UHGV virus genome: UHGV-0194287
Source of the DNA: a virus
Reading direction: 5' to 3' (one strand)
Length of the DNA: 13,450 bases
Position 1 is the stretch's first letter. Every line of letters starts with the position of its first letter. A program made the position numbers and the translations under genes. Of this stretch, positions 2,691 to 13,430 are shown one piece after another. Under the pieces are notes generated by a model. It did not search any database. It was not told the origin of the DNA and was given only the letters and a program-made list of their open reading frames with translations.

Positions 2691-3707
2691 TCACTCTATA
2701 TAGTTTAAAGGATTTTTAGTTACCGCATCCTCCAGATGATCTGGAGAAAAGTGCGCATAAATCATGGTCATTTTTATATCGGCATGGCCTAAAATTTCTT
2801 TAAGCACAAGTATGTTTCCTCCGTTCATCATAAAATGGCTGGCGAATGTATGACGTAATACATGGGTGCATTGACCCTCAGGAAGCTCAATATCGGCCCG
2901 CTTTACTGCACGCTCAAAGGCTTTTCTGCATGGTGAGAATAACTTCCCTCGATTTTTAGGAAGTTCGTTGTACAGATCCTGAGATATTGGCACGGTACGG
3001 TTTTTCTTGCCCTTCGTCTTGGTATAAGTGATGCGGTATTTGGATAATTGATGGCCCTGCAGATTTTCTGCTTCACTCCACCGTGCGCCAGTAGCTAGGC
3101 ATATTTTTGCAATCATTAGTAAGCTAGGGCTTTGAGATTCAGCACATGCCGCCAACAGGCGCTTGATTTCGTCCGTGGAAAGAAAAGCCAGCTCACCTTC
3201 GGCAATTTTGAAGGTCGGAAGTCCTGCCAGCGGGTTTGGTGCTGACCAGTGTCCTAGTTTTTTTAATGTACCGAACACCGATGATAGATTGCGCTGTTCA
3301 AGGTTTACCGTGCGGGGCTTAACGGGCGACATAAGCGTGCCATCTTCATTTCGTATTTCACCTTTTAACCGTGCTTCGCGGTATTTCGTAAAGTCTCCGG
3401 CTGTCAGTTCTGAGGCGATGGGGTCGCCTAGGCCATTACAGATAATTCTAAGTTTCGCCATGAGGCGCTTGGGGTCTGCGAGTGTCTGACCATACAGGGA
3501 ATACCAAAGCTCAATTAATTCTGATAGGCGTCGCCGATCATCCTTTTCACCCAACCACGGTTTTTTATTCACTTCTTCCATTGTGAAGCTTTCAAACGCA
3601 ATGGCTTCGCCTTTCGTGGCAAATTGCTTACGCACGCGCTTGCCATTGCGTCCATTGGGATAGCACTCGCACAACCATTTTCCGTTCGGCTGTTTTCTGA
3701 TGGTCAT
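2691..3707 (-). CDS. Phage integrase, tyrosine site-specific recombinase (338 aa)
   Basis: C-terminal catalytic region HVLRHTFASHFMMNGGNILVLKEILGHADIKMTMIYAHF (R, H-x-x-R and Y motifs). Start is 1 nt after the CI stop. Located next to the att repeat. Confidence 0.95.
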   Translation of the reverse strand: MTIRKQPNGKWLCECYPNGRNGKRVRKQFATKGEAIAFESFTMEEVNKKPWLGEKDDRRRLSELIELWYSLYGQTLADPKRLMAKLRIICNGLGDPIASELTAGDFTKYREARLKGEIRNEDGTLMSPVKPRTVNLEQRNLSSVFGTLKKLGHWSAPNPLAGLPTFKIAEGELAFLSTDEIKRLLAACAESQSPSLLMIAKICLATGARWSEAENLQGHQLSKYRITYTKTKGKKNRTVPISQDLYNELPKNRGKLFSPCRKAFERAVKRADIELPEGQCTHVLRHTFASHFMMNGGNILVLKEILGHADIKMTMIYAHFSPDHLEDAVTKNPLNYIE

Positions 3708-3708
3708 A

Positions 3709-4341
3709 TCAAAGGCTCTTAATGATTTTCAGTGCGCGGCCTACTACCTCAATGTCATCCAGACCGCACTCAAACGATGAATCATCCTGATGCACTACTA
3801 ATTTGTTTCCCGGGAGTCGTGTCAATTTAACAATGCTTTTTATCCCGTCGATGTCCACTAACCACATACCATTTACTGGTGGTGTTTGGTTGCGATCTAT
3901 TAAATAAGAATCACCAGAAGTAGTCACCAGCAGCAGGTTGCTTGAATCTGAGGGGAGTATGCTGCTATCAATGATTGCTTTTCCCGCATCGATCAATAAA
4001 CCACCGTTGAGAGTCGCCTTGTCAATTTCAGGAGATACTAGTTCAGAAAGAGGTACAACCTTGCTGGAGTTCACGGAATTGATATTTTTTTTAGGTTCAA
4101 TGTTTGGACCTGGCTCCCCCTGTCCGGTGGTTAGCCACAGTAAAGAAACTCCTGTTTCCAAGGCGCACTGAATCACCCACTCTGCAGGAAAACTATCTCT
4201 TAAGTATCTGTTTGCCATGGTGCTTTTTGATGCGCCTAAGTGATCGCAAAGTTGCTGTCTGGACTTGAAATCATAGGCTGCCATTAGTCTATGGATAGCC
4301 TCTCTTCCCCCTGTATTCTCTCCAACCTTTACCTGTATCAT
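3709..4341 (-). CDS. CI-like immunity repressor, N-terminal HTH plus C-terminal LexA/S24 peptidase-like domain (210 aa)
   Basis: N-terminal HTH-like region (QQLCDHLGASKSTMANRYL). C-terminal GDSYLID ... IVKLTRL ... IEVVGRALKII resembles the S24 Ser/Lys dyad region. Divergent from the rightward early operon, translationally coupled to int. Confidence 0.85.
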   Translation of the reverse strand: MIQVKVGENTGGREAIHRLMAAYDFKSRQQLCDHLGASKSTMANRYLRDSFPAEWVIQCALETGVSLLWLTTGQGEPGPNIEPKKNINSVNSSKVVPLSELVSPEIDKATLNGGLLIDAGKAIIDSSILPSDSSNLLLVTTSGDSYLIDRNQTPPVNGMWLVDIDGIKSIVKLTRLPGNKLVVHQDDSSFECGLDDIEVVGRALKIIKSL

Positions 4342-4353
4342 TTTTTAATCCTG

Positions 4354-4405
4354 TTGACGTATCAAATATTGGATCGTAGTATCTCGATGTATCAAATATT
4401 GAATC
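4354..4405 (+). promoter_or_regulatory. Early rightward promoter (pR-like) with two 17-bp direct operator-like repeats
   Basis: TTGACG (4354-4359), 17-nt spacer, TAGTAT (4377-4382). GTATCAAATATTGGATC (4359-4375) and GTATCAAATATTGAATC (4389-4405) are 30 bp apart centre to centre, between the divergent CI and Cox-like genes. Confidence 0.5.
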
Positions 4406-4460: not shown

Positions 4461-4703
4461 ATGAGCACTGATATTTCAATTCGTGTACCAAAAGAGATGG
4501 CTACGCCTGCAGAGTTCGCGGAATGGGAAGGTATCTCCCGCGGCTCTGTGTATCAAAAAATTCACCATGGTCAGCTTGCTAAATACATGGTCAAGAAAGA
4601 AAAAAACAAAGGCCGCGTAAGCCTGCGTTATTTAATGTACAAAACCGATCAGGTCCGTGAATCCCTCGGTCATTCCAACTTCCGCGTCATTGTTGGTAAG
4701 TAA
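4461..4703 (+). CDS. Cox/Apl-like HTH excisionase-regulator (80 aa)
   Basis: First gene of the rightward operon opposite CI. Segment PAEFAEWEGISRGSVYQKIHHGQL resembles the HTH region of P2 Cox (YQEFAKLIGKSTGAVRRMIDKGKL) as I recall it. GGGAG RBS upstream. Confidence 0.6.
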   Translation: MSTDISIRVPKEMATPAEFAEWEGISRGSVYQKIHHGQLAKYMVKKEKNKGRVSLRYLMYKTDQVRESLGHSNFRVIVGK

Positions 4704-5758: not shown

Positions 5759-5825
5759 CCAACTAATGAAATTAATGGCGTAAACCCGCCGGGCATCCCT
5801 TTATCTAAATTCAGGAGAATTGATT

Positions 5826-6059
5826 ATGCGTAATATTGAAATCCTCACGACTAAAACCGGACCGGATGATGCTGGGCTTAATATTTTACTGACAGAGGCT
5901 CGTCTGGAAGAACGCCGGGCAAGGGCTGAAGCAATGGCAGCTCGCCTTGATAGCCTGGCGTGTCATATCTCATCCCGTCAGCTAAACCACGTGGAAGCGG
6001 CAGAACTGCTGCGTGTGACTGCTGAAGCAATCCAGAACGAAGCGCAGGAGATCCACTAA
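5826..6059 (+). CDS. Hypothetical early-operon protein (77 aa)
   Basis: ATG 5826 with AGGAGA 7 nt upstream (track ORF begins at TTG 5820); its stop overlaps the next start (TAATG). Confidence 0.5.
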   Translation: MRNIEILTTKTGPDDAGLNILLTEARLEERRARAEAMAARLDSLACHISSRQLNHVEAAELLRVTAEAIQNEAQEIH

Positions 6060-6286
6060 TGGCTGATGCAATGGATCTCGTACAGCAGCGCGTTGAAGAA
6101 GAACGCCAGCGCCATATCCGTGCTGCCCGTGCCAAAACACCGGGCGTGTCTCGCGTGCTTTGCATTGAGTGTGAAGCGCCAATTCCGCCAGCACGCCGCC
6201 GTGCCATTCCGGGTGTGCAGCTTTGCATTACCTGCCAGGAAATTGCAGAGCTGAAAGGCAAACATTACAACGGAGGTGCTGTATGA
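6059..6286 (+). CDS. TraR/DksA-family C4 zinc-finger protein (75 aa)
   Basis: CIECEAPIP...(19 aa)...CITCQE gives a CxxC-N-CxxC zinc finger of the TraR/DksA type; GCAGGAG RBS; translationally coupled on both sides. Confidence 0.75.
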   Translation: MADAMDLVQQRVEEERQRHIRAARAKTPGVSRVLCIECEAPIPPARRRAIPGVQLCITCQEIAELKGKHYNGGAV

Positions 6287-7137
6287 GCACCATCCTGAAA
6301 TGGGCGGGAAATAAAACCGCCATTATGTCCGAACTGAAAAAACACCTTCCTGCTGGCCCGCGACTGGTTGAACCTTTCGCGGGTTCCTGTGCAGTGATGA
6401 TGGAGACGGATTACCCCAGCTATCTGGTTGCGGATATTAATCCTGATTTAATCAACCTCTATAAAAAGGTTGCCGCTGATTGTGAATCGTTTATATCTCG
6501 CGCCAGAGTTTTATTTGAGAACGCAAACAGGGAGATGGATTATTACAACATAAGGCAGGAGTTTAATTACTCAACTGAAATTACTGATTTCATGAAAGCG
6601 GTATATTTCCTGTATCTCAATCGTCACGGTTACCGTGGTTTATGCCGCTATAACAAGAGCGGGCATTTCAACATTCCCTACGGTAATTATAAAAATCCGT
6701 ATTTCCCTGAAAAAGAAATTCGCGCATTTGCAGAAAAAGCCCAGCGGGCAACGTTTATCTGCGCCAGCTTTGATGAAACGCTGGCGATGTTGAAAGCGGG
6801 GGATGTGGTGTATTGCGATCCGCCGTATGACGGTACGTTTTCCGGCTATCACACTGATGGTTTCACTGAAGATGACCAGTATCACCTGGCATCCGTTCTT
6901 GAACATCGAGCATCTGAAGGACATCCGGTCATTGTTTCTAACAGTGACACGTCTTTGACCCGGTCTCTTTATCGTAATTTCACTCACCACTACATCAGGG
7001 CGAAACGCAGCATCGGCGTTGCAGCGGGGGAGGGAAAATTTGCAACAGAGATGATTGCCACTAAATCTGCTAATTGGTTTAGTGCCGATTTTAGTAGGGG
7101 ACGTGACTCTACTGTTATTTTCGGGGTGCAAGTGTGA
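6283..7137 (+). CDS. dam: DNA adenine methyltransferase, Dam (D12 class) family
   Basis: Start ATG overlaps the upstream stop (ATGA) with GGAGGTG RBS. N-terminal [32 protein letters not shown] and catalytic DPPY (6817-6828) align with E. coli Dam. The track's longer ORF (from 6223) begins inside the upstream gene. Confidence 0.9.
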
Positions 7138-7964
7138 AAGAAATGCACCACGGAATTCATCATTTCCATGGGACGCCTGTCTGGGGAAGTGCTGGCGACG
7201 TTCATCGTATTGCGGTGAGCGGAGCTGGTGCTTTCGTCTCCTATGTACGACCAGATCAGATTGCGGCGTCCATTCAGCACGCTCAGGTCGTCGGCATTGA
7301 TAACGGCGCATTTTCTGCATGGGTGCGTGGGCTAAAAATTAACTGGAGTGATTTTTATAAATGGCTCCTGAACTATTACCACCATCCTAAGGTCGCTTTT
7401 TTTGTCATTCCTGATGTTGTGGACGGAGGTGAACGTGACAATGATGCCCTGATAAACGAAGTTCCGAAAATGTTCTACGGGAAGGCAACTCCCGTCTGGC
7501 ATCTGCACGAGTCAATCGATCGGCTTATCGAGCTATGTCGTGAATGGCCTCGTGTCTGCTTTGGATCGTCTGGTGAATATGCGGCTATTAGAACTGCGCA
7601 CTGGCATCGTCGTATGCAGGACGCTTTTGAAGCAATTTATTGCCGACACAATTTCAAAACAGCTGTTCATGGTTTGCGCATGCTTGACGGTCGTGTGTTG
7701 GGAAATTACCCACTGGCGACTGCCGACAGTACAAATCTTGCCTGCAATGTCCCCAAATTTAATAGCAAATATCCTGAGCTTACGCGGGCTATTCAGGAGG
7801 CTGAGTATTCGCGCAATCTGACGGAAAAGGAGCTGAAAGCTGTCATTCTGAAAAACCGTTGCGCAATTTTAAAAGGTGCAATTGAAGCTGTTCGCCCACC
7901 TTCAGTTTCTGACTGGCTGTCGAATGGTTTGCAGCCTTCACAGCTCGAACTGGAGATTGCGTAA
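7134..7964 (+). CDS. Hypothetical protein (276 aa) translationally coupled to Dam; function unknown
   Basis: GTG 7134 overlaps the Dam stop (alternative ATG at 7143); its stop overlaps the gpA-like start (TAATG). Contains a D-N-G-A-F segment ([12 protein letters not shown]) and glycine-rich stretches; no motif I can assign with confidence. Confidence 0.65.
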
Positions 7965-10336
7965 TGAACTACAGCTATTCCTGGAATGCTGAGAAAAAAG
8001 CAATCAATCCTTACGTAGAGACAGAAGAGCAATCTTCAGTTTCTGCGCTTTCAAACCTGATCACTCTGTACGCTGTCGATAACGAGCAGGAACAACTGCG
8101 TCGCGAGGCACTGAGTGATCAGGTCTGGGAGCGTTATTTCTTTAATGAATCCCGTGATCCTGTCCAACGCGAAATGGAGCAGGATAAGCTCATTAGTCGG
8201 GCAAAGCTGGCGCATGAGCAGCAGCGTTTTAATCCGGATATGGTCATTCTGGCGGACGTCAACGCCCAGCCTTCCCATATCAGCAAGCCGCTGATGCAAC
8301 GTATTGAATACTTCAGCAGCCTGGGCAGGCCAAAGGCTTATTCCCGCTATTTGCGTGAGACGATTAAGCCATGTCTGGAACGGCTGGAGCATGTACGCGA
8401 CAGTCAGCTATCCACTTCTTTTCGCTTTATTGCGAGCCATGAAGGGCTGGACGGCCTGCTGATCCTGCCTGAAATGAGTCAGGATCAGGTGAAACGCCTG
8501 TCCACCCTGGTAGCTGCGCATATGAGCATGTGCCTTGATGCCGCTTGTGGTGATTTGTACGCCACCGATGATGTTAAGCCAGAAGAAATCCGCAAGACAT
8601 GGGAAAAGGTGGCAGCGGAAACCCTGCGTCTGGATGTCATCCCGCCTGCGTTTGAGCAACTCCGCCGGAAAAGAAACCGCCGTAAACCCGTGCCCTATGA
8701 ACTCATTCCGGGTTCGCTGGCGCGTATGTTGTGCGCTGACTGGTGGTACCGGAAATTATGGAAGATGCGTTGCGAATGGCGGGAAGAGCAGTTGCGTGCT
8801 GTCTGCCTTGTCAGCAAAAAAGCATCTCCCTATGTCAGCTATGAAGCCGTGATGCATAAACGTGAGCAGCGCCGTAAGTCGCTGGAGTTTTTCCGTTCTC
8901 ATGAACTGGTGAACGAAGACGGCGACACGCTGGACATGGAGGATGTGGTAAACGCCAGCAGCAGCAACCCTGCGCATCGCCGCAATGAGATGATGGCCTG
9001 TGTTAAAGGTCTGGAGCTTATCGCGGAAATGCGTGGCGACTGCGCCGTTTTCTACACCATCACCTGTCCGTCACGTTTCCATTCCACGCTAAATAACGGC
9101 AGGCCCAACCCGACCTGGACAAATGCGACGGTAAGACAAAGCAGTGATTATCTGGTCGGCATGTTTGCTGCATTTCGTAAGGCGATGCACAAAGCCGGAT
9201 TGCGCTGGTATGGCGTGCGGGTGGCTGAGCCGCATCATGACGGCACAGTTCACTGGCACCTGTTGTGTTTTATGCGCAAAAAAGACCGCCGCGCCATTAC
9301 TGCTTTGTTGCGTAAGTTTGCCATTCGTGAAGACTGCGAGGAGCTGGGTAATAACACGGGGCCACGCTTTAAGTCTGAGCTGATAAACCCGCGCAAAGGA
9401 ACGCCGACAAGCTACATCGCGAAATATATCAGCAAGAACATTGACGGGCGTGGTCTGGCTGGCGAGATCAGCAAGGAAACGGGTAAATCTCTGCGTGATA
9501 ACGCTGAATACGTGAATGCCTGGGCGTCTTTGCATCGTGTTCAGCAATTCCGCTTCTTTGGTATTCCGGGACGTCAGGCTTACCGTGAACTTCGCTTGCT
9601 GGCTGGTCAGGCGGCAAGGCAACAGGGTGACAAAAAAGCAGGTGCGCCGGTACTGGATAACCCGCGTCTTGATGCCATTCTGGCTGCTGCTGATGCTGGT
9701 TGTTTTGCCACCTACATCATGAAGCAGGGCGGCGTACTGGTTCCCCGTAAATATCACCTCATCAGAACCGCTTATGAAATCAACGAAGAGCCGACCGCCT
9801 ATGGCGATCACGGTATTCGTATTTATGGCATCTGGTCACCCATTGCAGAGGGCAAGATCTGCACTCATGCAGTGAAGTGGAAAATGGTTCGTAAAGCCGT
9901 TGACGTTCAGGAGGCGGCAGCCGACCAGGGCGCTTGCGCCCCTTGGACTCGTGGCAATAACTGTCCCTTTGCTGAAAATTTGAACCAACAGGAGAAAGAT
10001 AAATCAGCTGATGGGGACCCCAGAACGGACATTACCAGCATGGATGACAAGGAGTTGCACGATTACCTGCACAGTATGAGCAAAAAAGAGCGCCGGGAAC
10101 TGGCAGCAAGGTTACGCCTGGTGAAACCGAAACGGCGTAAAGACTACAAACAGCGAATTACAGACCATCAGCGACTGCAGCTCGTGTATGAGCTGAAGTC
10201 CAGAGGATTTGATGGCAGCGAGAAAGAGGTCGATTTACTCCTTCGCGGAGGCAGTATTCCGTCAGGAGCAGGCCTGCGTATCTTCTATCGGAACCAGCGT
10301 TTGCAGGAAGATGATCAGTGGCGGAACCTGTATTAA
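7964..10336 (+). CDS. Rolling-circle replication initiator endonuclease, P2 gpA family (790 aa)
   Basis: HUH motif in [10 protein letters not shown] (~9244-9270) and paired active-site tyrosines YIAKYISK (~9411-9434), as in P2 gpA and phiX174 A. Size close to P2 gpA. Confidence 0.9.
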
Positions 10337-11255: not shown

Positions 11256-11954
11256 ATGGTTATGTTAGTGGATGACTGTCCACGATGTGGATCACAAAAA
11301 ATAGCGTTTGATGTTAATGGGCTGAATTGCACTAGGGTTTACAATGCATTGGGCGGGGGTAAAACATACGAGTACGAGGTCTATTGTGTTTGCCGAGAGT
11401 GTCATAAAACGACAATGTTTCTTTGCAGACCTTTAACGAAAAATAAAAATTTAGATGGCTATAATTGGGAAAGTGGAATATTCGGCTTAAAGGAAGTTGC
11501 AGAGGTTGTTAGGCCTATATCACCGGCAGACTTAGCAGTAGAGGAGCCACCAGAGTTCTTACCTGAGCATATCAATAGTGCATATGAGGAAGGGGCGAAA
11601 TGTTTGGCTATAGGTTGTTATAATGCAGCAGCAACCATGTTTAGGCTTTGCCTTGATTATGCCACAAAAGGACTTCTTCCTGATGGGGAGCAAGGGCCTG
11701 CGCAAAAAATAAGGAGAAGCCTAGGGTTAAGAATGGAGTGGTTATTTGATAATCATCTACTGCCTGAAGCTTTAAGGGAACTAGCTGAATGCGTTAAAGA
11801 TGACGGAAATGATGGAGCGCATGAAGGTATTTTGGATAAAGCTGCTGCTGAGGATCTTGAAGATTTTACCTATCTTTTTTTAGAACGGCTTTACACTGAA
11901 CCTCAACGCCTTATCGAAGCCAAGACAAGGCGTGAACAAAGAAGAAACAAATAA
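11256..11954 (+). CDS. Zinc-ribbon + DUF4145 (HEPN-like) protein (232 aa); candidate single-gene defence cargo
   Basis: N-terminal CPRCG...CVCRECH zinc ribbon. C-terminal region with AATMFRLCLDYA ... VKDDGNDGAHEG ... FLERLY fits the DUF4145 pattern (GN..AH core). Strong RBS; lower GC than the flanking phage genes. Confidence 0.6.
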   Translation: MVMLVDDCPRCGSQKIAFDVNGLNCTRVYNALGGGKTYEYEVYCVCRECHKTTMFLCRPLTKNKNLDGYNWESGIFGLKEVAEVVRPISPADLAVEEPPEFLPEHINSAYEEGAKCLAIGCYNAAATMFRLCLDYATKGLLPDGEQGPAQKIRRSLGLRMEWLFDNHLLPEALRELAECVKDDGNDGAHEGILDKAAAEDLEDFTYLFLERLYTEPQRLIEAKTRREQRRNK

Positions 11955-11962
11955 GTTCGGAA

Positions 11963-12600
11963 TTATTCTTCTGAAAGAATATAGGGCGTAAATTTAATCA
12001 CTTCTTCGCCCAGCCAGTCGTTCAGCTCTTGTAGCCTTTTTTGCAAGGGCGTTAATTCATTACGTACAAATACGCGACTGGCCTTCTCCACATCCCCAAA
12101 CCCTCCAACATTATTAGGCATAATCCCCATCATTTGCGGCGGCACGCGGTGCGCAGCCATCATGTCGTCGCGGCTGACATTTTTGATATTCAAAAACTCA
12201 TCCTTCGCCGCGACTTCTGACAATGGGATGATCTGAAGCCCGTCTTTTTTGCCGTTAGGCGAGTACATAAACAGGTTGCGGAAGTTGCCTGGACCTTTGG
12301 CGCTTTTCATCGCATTGCGGAGGTTGTTCACATCCTCCTGGTTTTGCGCGGCATCGGTCATGTACATGATAAAGCCCGCATGACTGCCGTTAATGTAATA
12401 CTTGCGACGGAACAGCGTGGCGGACTCGTTGAGCAGGGCTGACGGAATGGCAGAAAGATAACCGGGCAGGCCGTAGATCTCCTGATTAATATCCGGTTCC
12501 ATCAGATGAAAAATGCTGCCTTTCGTGAACTGATACGGCTGGGTTGTCATACCGTATTGCACAAACCAGTAGGTAACGGTTTTACGACCAGTATTGAACT
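11963..12600 (-). pseudogene. Truncated portal (gpQ-like) remnant, C-terminal ~200 aa only; N-terminal boundary approximate
   Basis: Minus-strand ORF, convergent with the cargo gene, in the position and orientation of P2 Q next to cos. Its first ~50-60 codons run through the ogr promoter and start region and look non-coding. A P2 portal is about 340 aa and no terminase or capsid genes follow. Confidence 0.45.
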
Positions 12601-12702
12601 TGAAGTGAAAATTGGTGATCTTGAAATGGAATAAATGGTTCTCAATATTGATATTTTGTGTATCATTGCAATGATTCTGATAGCAAAGGTAGGGATCTGG
12701 AT

Positions 12703-12921
12703 ATGATGAATTGTCCAAAGTGTGGTCATGCGGCGCACACAAGGAGCAGTTTTCAAGTAACAGAAAGCACCAAAGAGCGTTACTGCCAGTGCCAAAATAT
12801 TAACTGCGGGAGCACTTTTGTTACCCATGAAACAGTGGTCCGGTTTATTGTGACACCTGCAGTGATTGCCACAGCCCCTCCACATCCATTGCCAGGTGGT
12901 CAGGGCCATATGAATTTTTAA
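12703..12921 (+). CDS. ogr: Ogr/Delta-family zinc-finger late-gene transcription activator (72 aa)
   Basis: MMNCPKCGHAAHTRSSFQVTESTKERYCQCQNINCGSTF parallels P2 Ogr (CPLCQHAAHARTS...TKERYHQCQNVNCSATF); identical length to P2 Ogr; AGGGA RBS. The track ORF starts 45 nt upstream; the internal ATG is preferred. Confidence 0.85.
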   Translation: MMNCPKCGHAAHTRSSFQVTESTKERYCQCQNINCGSTFVTHETVVRFIVTPAVIATAPPHPLPGGQGHMNF

Positions 12922-12928
12922 GAAAGAG

Positions 12929-12951
12929 AACCTGCTACGGCAGGTTTTTAT
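12929..12951. terminator. Bidirectional rho-independent terminator between ogr and the convergent gene
   Basis: AACCTGC-TACG-GCAGGTT hairpin followed by TTTTTATT on the plus strand and a T-rich tract on the minus strand. Confidence 0.55.
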
Positions 12952-13430
12952 TCATCTGGGATCTCACCCGTTTCAAGAAAATGTATAAAGCCAGGCTCAT
13001 CTATGATGATAGTGCCTTTCATCCTGGCTGCCGATACTTTTGATGGGCCTGCATTGTAACCGCAACAGAGCATCTGAAGGTTTTGGGTTACAGATGTTCT
13101 TACCGTTAATCCTTGTTCATTCGCCTTATCAACCAACCTTTCTTTATCTGCTTTCTTAAATCCGGTGAAACACACATCGAATGTATTTTTTTTCGGACCT
13201 GACTGCTTAGTGAGATGTGAGTAGTTTTCGGGGAGGAATGACGCGCATTCCTGAATGGCTTGTTCTTGTGAATCGTATTGTTTAAGAATGCGGTCTTTTC
13301 GGAAGGTTTTTATTCGATCGGTGTTCTTACAAATGCCCTGTATGTGATTTTCGCTATAACTGATGCTCTGTATTGAGTGAACACCGATACGACCATTTGC
13401 ATTGATGTAAACAAAGTGAAGTTCTTCCAT
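12948..13430 (-). CDS. Small WYL-like + BRCT-like two-domain protein (160 aa)
   Basis: N-terminus LHFVYINANGRIGVHSIQ...DRIKTFRKDRI resembles the WYL-domain core (Y...R...P... R.FR.DRI). C-terminus FDVCFTGF...RTSVTQNLQMLCCGYNAGPSKVSAARMKGTIIIDEPGF follows the BRCT pattern of NAD-ligase type (F.x.TG......SVSKKT..LV.G...GSK..KA...GI.II.E..F). Confidence 0.6.
   Translation of the reverse strand: MEELHFVYINANGRIGVHSIQSISYSENHIQGICKNTDRIKTFRKDRILKQYDSQEQAIQECASFLPENYSHLTKQSGPKKNTFDVCFTGFKKADKERLVDKANEQGLTVRTSVTQNLQMLCCGYNAGPSKVSAARMKGTIIIDEPGFIHFLETGEIPDE

Follow-up and report, generated by a model that had tools for sequence, protein, structure and literature searches.

The window analysed here, a 13,450-nt stretch of DNA (UHGV virus genome UHGV-0194287), holds a P2/186-type (Eganvirus-like) prophage from an E. 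coli chromosome, and between the genes for its Dam methyltransferase and its replication initiator endonuclease A lies an open reading frame (ORF) for a 276-aa protein whose annotation says only 'hypothetical'. We find that this protein is a previously unannotated member of a known, published anti-restriction enzyme group. Our preferred reading, which we consider likely, is that it is a phage-type DpdA, a minimal, zinc-free member of the tRNA-guanine transglycosylase (TGT) superfamily belonging to the 'singleton DpdA' group of gamma-proteobacterial phages, and that it acts by the mechanism proposed below. DpdA is a phage enzyme that replaces guanine in DNA by a 7-deazaguanine base. The gene is:

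7134..7964, + strand: DpdA-like (TGT-superfamily) predicted DNA 7-deazaguanine transglycosylase, 276 aa from GTG 7134 (273 aa from ATG 7143)

The protein matches phrog_887 ('queuine tRNA-ribosyltransferase') with E = 2.4e-96 over residues 2-275, and the same family is matched by the DpdA proteins of phages CAjan (8e-96), MED16 (3e-70) and 7-11 (7e-74), with no match for E. coli Tgt. In tblastn searches of phage genomes the identity was 75% in the P2-like Salmonella phages SI22 and SEN1, 55% in Pantoea phage MED16 and 34% in Salmonella phage 7-11, and an exhaustive homologue search returned 555 representative clusters, mostly of 220-270 aa, with residues 10-207 in common. Its relatives include DpdA1 of the Queuovirinae (Escherichia phage CAjan gp35, 9g, Bas24), a homologous protein of the same PHROG and a validated preQ0 DNA transglycosylase; deletion of dpdA in CAjan abolishes the preQ0 deoxynucleoside dPreQ0 (PMC6884629). 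Pairwise BLASTP of the window protein against CAjan DpdA gave 22% identity (E = 1e-3), and hhalign of the family profile A2 (112 sequences) against it gave a probability of 98.6% with E = 9.5e-16 over 159 columns. A tentative TGT/DpdA idea in a preliminary description of this DNA was therefore correct, being carried by the phrog_887 match, the CAjan DpdA profile alignment and the conserved motifs.

The singleton phage DpdAs (MED16 gp38, 7-11 gp032, SW9 gp39 and SEN1 gp38) have phrog_887 in common with the window protein and the same short zinc-free architecture. MED16 DpdA is reported to give an HHpred match of 99.18% to Thermotoga maritima TGT (2ASH) and the phage DNA to contain the 7-amido-7-deazaguanine deoxynucleoside dADG at 0.13% of G, and SW9 gp39 and SEN1 gp38, proteins of Salmonella phages with 75% identity to the window protein, are named as the closest viral homologues of this DpdA (PMC8306585); phage 7-11, which carries only a DpdA, also has dADG (PMC6884629). 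Phages of the MED16 and 7-11 type have no preQ0 synthesis genes nearby, as is also the case among the larger window ORFs scanned against Pfam, and in SI22 the DpdA-like gene likewise lies directly upstream of a replication endonuclease. SI22 is without Dam, whereas the window gene stands directly behind Dam in a prophage remnant without late genes whose host is E. coli, and the nucleoside data for the singleton group come from outside its P2-type members. Our own link to TGT is made through CAjan DpdA and through structure; the published HHpred link to 2ASH was not directly reproduced.

The preliminary description had proposed a structure prediction for the protein. An AlphaFold2 model built from an 87-sequence alignment (pLDDT 92.4, pTM 0.89) folds as a (beta/alpha)8 barrel that carries a helical extension at its C-terminus; the predicted barrel is TGT-like. 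Foldseek comparison with the Protein Data Bank (PDB) placed Cap10 (two chains) and archaeosine TGT at the top, with the bacterial DpdA 7ui4 at rank 21, and comparison with viral models gave 32 matches at E <= 1e-3, of which the named ones are mostly phage queuine tRNA-ribosyltransferases; a protein of Vibrio phage nt-1 was matched as well.

We compared residues across the window protein, SI22, MED16, 7-11, CAjan, a QueD fusion and a Dam fusion, and D56, G58, A59, F60, G98, P120, H123, G144, W157, R160, M161, H179, P193, D198 and S199 are invariant among them. The putative catalytic residues (D56-F60, H123, G144, H179 and D198-S199) sit at the C-terminal ends of model strands 3, 5, 6, 7 and 8, and D56, G58, A59, F60, H123, G144, H179, D198 and S199 are kept through to CAjan DpdA. 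The sites are:

7299..7313, + strand: D56-N-G-A-F60 motif at the end of strand 3, aligned to LDSGAFS of CAjan
7413..7424, + strand: D94-V-V-D97 after strand 4, D94 being invariant in the singleton family
7500..7502, + strand: H123 at the end of strand 5, invariant in alignments A2 and A4 and aligned to a CAjan His
7563..7574, + strand: G144-S-S-G147 Gly-rich loop after strand 6, G144 being invariant and the loop aligned to CAjan IGGMVG
7668..7730, + strand: H179 ... D198-S199 at the ends of strands 7 and 8, all three invariant, with ADST aligned to CAjan CDSS

Counterparts in bacterial DpdA and Cap10 were assigned from the order and spacing of the motifs and from where they fall relative to the strands. 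On this mapping D56 is the predicted general acid/base and F60 the predicted aromatic gate, counterparts of Asp95 and Phe99 of bacterial DpdA (PMC10164549). The D-N-G-A-F segment, earlier noted to recall DSGGFQ faintly, is indeed the counterpart of the TGT motif. H123 would make a base contact, as the counterpart of bacterial DpdA His181, and G144-G147 probably corresponds to the TGT/DpdA GG loop that reads the 7-substituent (PMC10164549). H179 and D198 are predicted to form the catalytic pair, with D198 as nucleophile, by comparison with Asp256 of bacterial DpdA and with H226/D248 of Cap10 (PMC10164549; bioRxiv 10.1101/2025.04.06.647259). The predicted base-recognition aspartate is ambiguous between D94 and D97.

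A CxCxxC...H motif is absent from the 276-aa sequence, whose sole cysteines are C135, C142, C169, C204 and C243. The preliminary description had observed this absence, correctly, and had held it as a reservation against a DpdA assignment; the reservation falls, because CAjan DpdA and Cap10 are also without the motif (bioRxiv 10.1101/2025.04.06.647259). Since CAjan DpdA, which shares the D-x-G-A-F, His, Gly-loop, His and x-D-S motifs with the window protein, has no zinc motif either, the lack of one does not argue against placing the window protein among the phage DpdAs. The lack of a zinc site does exclude a canonical TGT or a bacterial DpdA. In our Tgt alignment A3 the zinc motif is invariant (C302, C304, C307 and H333), and compared with the canonical enzymes (E. 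coli Tgt of 375 aa, Zymomonas mobilis TGT, ArcTGT) the window protein is ∼100 residues shorter and has neither PF01702, the zinc site nor the tRNA-binding insertions. Bacterial DpdA (Dpd island of Salmonella Montevideo, PDB 7UI4) has 413 aa, a Zn site CxCx2Cx22H and an Ins8 subdomain (PMC10164549), the last two of which the window protein lacks. The PADLOC DpdA model PDLC02807 did not match the window protein and matched CAjan DpdA only marginally (E = 0.0013), which was the sole Dpd component found in a PADLOC scan of seven window and reference proteins that left out TraR and gene A; the dpdB ATPase and dpdC-K genes are not adjacent, the neighbours being Dam and A.

These comparisons bear on a tRNA-directed role, in which the enzyme would modify tRNA of the host or the phage (queuosine/preQ pathway) and so adjust translation in the lytic phase. 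The founders of the superfamily act on tRNA, and relatives of the window protein carry the database name 'queuine tRNA-ribosyltransferase', but such names are transferred annotation rather than tests. Against such a role, the protein has 276 aa compared with the 375 aa of E. coli Tgt, with no zinc subdomain, no tRNA-binding insertions and no PF01702 match; the substrate of the validated CAjan enzyme is DNA, and 9g DpdA does not need the host Tgt (PMC6884629). We regard a tRNA target as very improbable.

The window protein is structurally similar to Cap10 (type IV CBASS, PDB 9NTN; bioRxiv 10.1101/2025.04.06.647259), at a sequence identity of 11-12%. In an alternative reading it would, like Cap10, move a 7-deazaguanine to or from a protein or other non-DNA acceptor, and might interfere with the deazaguanine-dependent immunity of the host or modify a phage or host protein. 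Cap10 likewise has no zinc subdomain and has the conserved His...Asp pair (H226/D248, compared with H179/D198 here), and the base on CdnD is 7-amido-7-deazaguanine, the same as that unexpectedly seen in singleton-DpdA phages. However, Cap10 binds a protein-linked base, whereas the sequence relatives of the window family act on DNA; the sequence homology is to CAjan DpdA, for which DNA activity is proven, and the fusion and adjacency partners are DNA methyltransferases. Neither the window nor 90 related loci hold a CD-NTase or a Cap9/QueC-like partner, and no PADLOC model matched the 276-aa protein. A Cap10-like function is thus improbable.

Genomic context connects the family to 7-deazaguanine chemistry. 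In a phage-like metagenomic contig outside the 90 related loci, PTPS/QueD is fused to the N-terminus of a DpdA-like domain (P0209; locus L023, 2840-3847), and in one of the 90 related loci QueD lies directly upstream of the homologue (L091, 6641-7126). A Vut_1/YhhQ-type transporter ORF lies directly downstream in 5 of the 90 loci (viral contigs L064, L079, L094, L097 and L104), and these five ORFs match the putative preQ0 transporter of CAjan. FolE, QueC and QueE were not found within 10 kb of the 90 loci, and QueD was found in only one of them; a Pfam scan of the larger ORFs of the window showed no FolE, QueC, QueD or QueE, although no search was aimed at these genes. E. coli makes preQ0. The QueD and transporter links tie the DpdA-like family to 7-deazaguanine metabolism and to reliance on a host or salvaged base. 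CAjan differs in this respect, encoding its own FolE, QueD, QueC and QueE and a putative preQ0 transporter beside dpdA and replacing ∼32% of G, whereas the window protein would rely on its host and, judging from MED16 and 7-11, probably modify far less than 1% of G.

The same associations tell against the view that the protein is a TIM barrel with no connection to deazaguanine chemistry, or the product of a passenger gene that has lost its catalytic function, with a TGT resemblance of fold only. The QueD fusion and the adjacency of QueD and of YhhQ-type transporters are specific to 7-deazaguanine metabolism, the alignment to CAjan DpdA at 98.6% brings the motifs into register, and the active-site-like residues are under strong purifying conservation across the 555 representative clusters. 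We give this possibility very little weight, less than either a tRNA or a protein target.

Several points weigh against the phage-type DpdA assignment. Direct sequence searches with the window protein and with two family profiles matched neither Pfam TGT (PF01702) nor NCBIfam, the PADLOC DpdA model or any PDB chain, and Pfam matched neither the protein nor any of the 112 family members, in keeping with the earlier remark that it has no placeable motif. When the family profiles, which are shallow, were compared by hhalign with E. coli Tgt alone and with an 8-sequence bacterial Tgt profile, no alignment was obtained. At position 94, where the singleton family always has Asp, CAjan has Ser, and its Asp sits at position 97. 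The 'singleton' DpdAs form separate clusters whose function may have diverged (Hutinet et al. 2019, PMC6884629). Modification is very sparse in the two singleton-DpdA phages analysed, at 0.02% and 0.13% of G, and the base is dADG and not the expected dPreQ0 (PMC6884629, PMC8306585); this dADG, in MED16 and 7-11, was published without genetic proof of dpdA dependence, whereas the dPreQ0 of CAjan is gene-dependent. The modification of singleton-DpdA phages, MED16 included, gave no clear protection from the restriction enzymes tried (PMC8306585), and phage Orion, whose host is without preQ0 synthesis, shows no modification (PMC6884629). Finally, a prophage without late genes has no progeny DNA to protect unless a helper is present.

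The mechanism that we propose for a phage-type DpdA builds on what was observed directly, namely the family to which the protein belongs, its fold and conserved residues, the make-up of the cassette and the genomic associations; from these we infer the substrate base, DNA as the target of the window protein, the timing of its expression and an anti-restriction benefit. On prophage induction the early lytic promoter would drive the gene along with those for Dam and the initiator A. The enzyme would flip selected guanines out of the double-stranded, replicating phage DNA and form a covalent Asp198 intermediate, with D56 as general acid/base. Resolution of this intermediate with a 7-deazaguanine from the host queuosine pathway (preQ0, possibly ADG) would leave dPreQ0 or dADG at low density, and such a sparse second modification on top of Dam methylation would diversify the marks on the DNA and could be expected to blunt host restriction. 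A consensus scan for promoters provides a candidate for the first step:

4354..4382, + strand: promoter-like TTGACG-17-TAGTAT in the gap that separates the CI gene from the first rightward gene

This is a candidate early lytic promoter of the whole operon, and its location between the divergent CI (−) and the rightward genes agrees with 186/P2 organization. It was the only sensibly placed promoter-like site, and internal sites in the promoter/terminator scan did not exceed the shuffled expectation; expression with Dam and A is therefore the probable arrangement. A terminator-like signal near the DpdA-like start has just 3 G-C pairs and may well be chance:

7092-7114, + strand: terminator-like hairpin followed by TTATTTT, within the 3' end of dam and 20 nt 5' of the DpdA-like start, inside the swapped cassette

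Comparison with other prophages showed that dam and A may or may not be separated by the DpdA-like gene, which is an accessory cassette and not an essential replication component. Blastn against the dam-A prophage of CFT073 finds homology only at 6000-7058 and 8042-8600, the interval between them standing in place of 198 nt:

7059..8041, no strand: 983-nt mosaic cassette that takes in the final 79 nt of dam, all of the DpdA-like gene and the opening 78 nt of A

Because this block replaces 198 nt inside the flanking genes, the cassette was evidently swapped by recombination within dam and A; in most E. coli the dam matches end at nt 776 of 855. The 276-aa gene is present in 103 of 5,426 complete E. 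coli genomes, 102 of these copies being at least 99% identical to the window, and dam in 1,239, mostly without the 276-aa gene. A role for the gene as an essential replication accessory of A, which we considered, is rejected, as it is absent from most dam-A prophages.

The preliminary description had also suggested a partnership with Dam. A functional link is partly supported. Among the full-length E. coli copies listed, all overlap DNA adenine methylase and replication endonuclease annotations, and in 15 of 27 P2-type loci Dam lies directly upstream, these 15 forming three sub-lineages with ∼99-100%, 83% and 70% identity to the window protein. Outside the P2-type phages, in Rosenbergiella metrosideri (L009, 7977-9710), a 577-aa fusion joins complete DpdA-like and complete D12 Dam domains, and in a further locus (L044, 10762-13383) an 874-aa C5-cytosine-methylase-plus-Dam gene lies directly downstream of the DpdA-like gene. 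The partnership is not a necessary one, however, since the other 12 P2-type loci are without Dam; close homologues that have no Dam are found in phages SI22 and SEN1 and in a number of enterobacterial prophages. Taken together, the data suggest that Dam and DpdA-like functions recur together beyond what a shared insertion slot alone would give, and the DpdA-Dam fusion suggests that the two cooperate. The fusion evidence is that of L009, with its two complete domains. Two other database proteins, from E. coli-like contigs, were rejected as natural fusions: P0011, with Dam residues 1-193 in frame with DpdA-like sequence from residue 48, and P0121, with about the first 150 DpdA-like residues (1-150 or so) joined to a fragment of tail protein D. 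Both junctions resemble internal prophage deletions and suggest that the region is prone to deletion.

A stronger form of this link, which we consider doubtful, is a coupled two-base module in which Dam and the DpdA-like enzyme would work on identical or overlapping sites, for example by placing 7-deazaguanine for the G of GATC-type (GA-containing) sites beside N6-methyladenine (m6A). If true, temperate P2-type phages would carry a compound mark unreadable by a defence or restriction enzyme that depends on a single modification, and the L009 fusion, the L044 gene and the recurrence of dam-dpdA in three P2-type sub-lineages would reflect physical cooperation and not a shared insertion slot.

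The arrangement of the operon had initially been read as four consecutive genes sharing start/stop overlaps (TAATG, ATGA, GTGA and TAATG), indicating obligate co-translation with the replication endonuclease. Direct reading of the sequence confirmed all four junctions, but the number of genes that they link is five (DUF2732, TraR-like, Dam, the 276-aa ORF and A), these early-operon genes being joined via 1- or 4-nt overlaps:

stop TAA 6057-6059, ATG 6059-6061, + strand: DUF2732/TraR junction TAATG
stop TGA 6284-6286, ATG 6283-6285, + strand: TraR/Dam junction ATGA, with GGAGG 6 nt upstream
stop TGA 7135-7137, GTG 7134-7136, + strand: Dam/276-aa junction GTGA
stop TAA 7962-7964, ATG 7964-7966, + strand: 276-aa/A junction TAATG, with GGAG 8 nt upstream

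Obligate co-translation is not supported, because the gene is an optional cassette that most dam-A prophages are without, dam then overlapping A directly. In CFT073 the TraR/Dam and Dam/A pairs overlap likewise in the absence of the 276-aa gene, and such overlaps are thus the usual compaction of this operon. The start of the 276-aa ORF is itself uncertain. The closest database protein (P0001, an NCBI record) has 273 aa and begins MHHGIHHF, which corresponds to ATG 7143, and with this start the GTGA overlap would give way to a gap of 5 nt; a leader of ∼9 residues that precedes a conserved H-[YF]-H-G-T-P in homologues agrees with a start at GTG 7134. For Dam, the ORF listing runs out to TTG 6223, and the ribosome-binding site, the Pfam boundaries and the 285-aa CFT073 annotation favour ATG 6283.

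Profile matches confirmed the identities first proposed for the TraR-like, Dam and replication endonuclease genes, with TraR and Dam above curated cut-offs. The genes joined to the DpdA-like ORF are:

5820..6059, + strand: DUF2732 gene, first member of the chain (PF10809, E = 6.6e-29)
6059..6286, + strand: TraR/DksA-family C4 zinc finger, 75 aa (PF01258, E = 3.1e-11; TIGR02419, 65.8 bits; phrog_54, E = 1.4e-30)
6283..7137, + strand: orphan D12-class N6-adenine DNA methyltransferase (Dam family), 284 aa (PF02086, E = 3e-76; PADLOC orphan methyltransferase, E = 7e-110)
7964..10336, + strand: P2/186-type replication initiator endonuclease A, 790 aa (PF05840, E = 3.3e-127; phrog_91, E = 4.5e-287)

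The TraR-like protein scores 65.8 for TIGR02419 (cut-off 59.7) and 43.5 for PF01258 (cut-off 24.9) and contains CxxC...CxxC. The methyltransferase scores 256.9 bits for PF02086 (cut-off 22) and 316.9 for TIGR00571 (cut-off 114.85), with 'CDPPYD' in its translation; its score of 289 lies below the E. coli Dam equivalog cut-off of 441, for which reason its specificity for GATC is only presumed.

The left end of the window, from 1 to ∼1140, is host DNA of the glaH region and is matched in all 5,426 E. coli genomes, and the prophage portion starts near 1142. Because no tRNA, tmRNA or Rfam family was detected in the whole window, the attachment site is not a tRNA gene. The early region (6 kb) is matched in 1,323 of the 5,426 genomes, and the rightward early operon runs from a small ORF (4461-4703; no Pfam match) through CII, Fil, DUF5347, DUF2732, TraR-like, Dam, the 276-aa ORF and A to DinI. 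At the other end, similarity to intact prophages stops at ∼12575 (junction ∼12574), inside the portal gene, and the final 875 nt correspond to a segment that is ∼20 kb distant in intact prophages (e.g. NZ_OY754453) and holds the end of gene D, ogr and a hypothetical gene. About 20 kb, essentially all of the late genes, has been lost, and the remnant of ∼12 kb keeps int, CI, the early operon, A and ogr. With the late genes gone, this copy cannot form virions on its own. Its early operon is intact, the DpdA-like gene with it. The remaining features of the prophage are:

1451-2686, − strand: 411-aa ORF adjoining the integrase at the prophage edge, with no Pfam or PADLOC match and 'hypothetical' in E. 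coli genomes
2691-3707, − strand: integrase
3709-4341, − strand: CI repressor
11256-11954, + strand: 232-aa DUF4145 protein with N-terminal CxxC...CxxC, located in the variable stretch ahead of the portal gene, with DinI on one side and the portal remnant on the other
11963-12742, − strand: portal ORF without its N-terminal third, abutting the 3' end of gene D and ogr
12658-12921, + strand: ogr
12948-13430, − strand: 160-aa ORF just past ogr, with a weak BRCT-like C-terminus (Pfam, E = 9e-4)

In PADLOC the 232-aa DUF4145 protein weakly matches PD-T7-4, a candidate defence protein (E = 1.2e-6), and its gene may be anti-phage cargo. The 411-aa ORF at 1451-2686 is a second candidate cargo gene, and the 160-aa ORF at 12948-13430 has a weak PADLOC match to candidate PDC-S48 (E = 1.7e-7).

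The interest of the 276-aa protein rests on singleton-DpdA biochemistry and on its association with Dam. The gene goes under the name 'hypothetical protein' in 103 of 5,426 complete E. coli genomes (around 2%) and in many other enterobacteria, an annotation that its DpdA-type identity corrects. This identity would extend 7-deazaguanine DNA modification beyond the lytic Queuovirinae to common temperate prophages of the P2/186 type. A version that resides in E. coli beside an orphan Dam, together with a natural DpdA-Dam fusion, offers a tractable system for the questions that surround singleton DpdAs, which are what base is inserted, why dADG appears without DpdC and whether so sparse a modification protects, and it would also allow sensitivity to be tested against the recently described defences that recognize deazaguanine-modified DNA.

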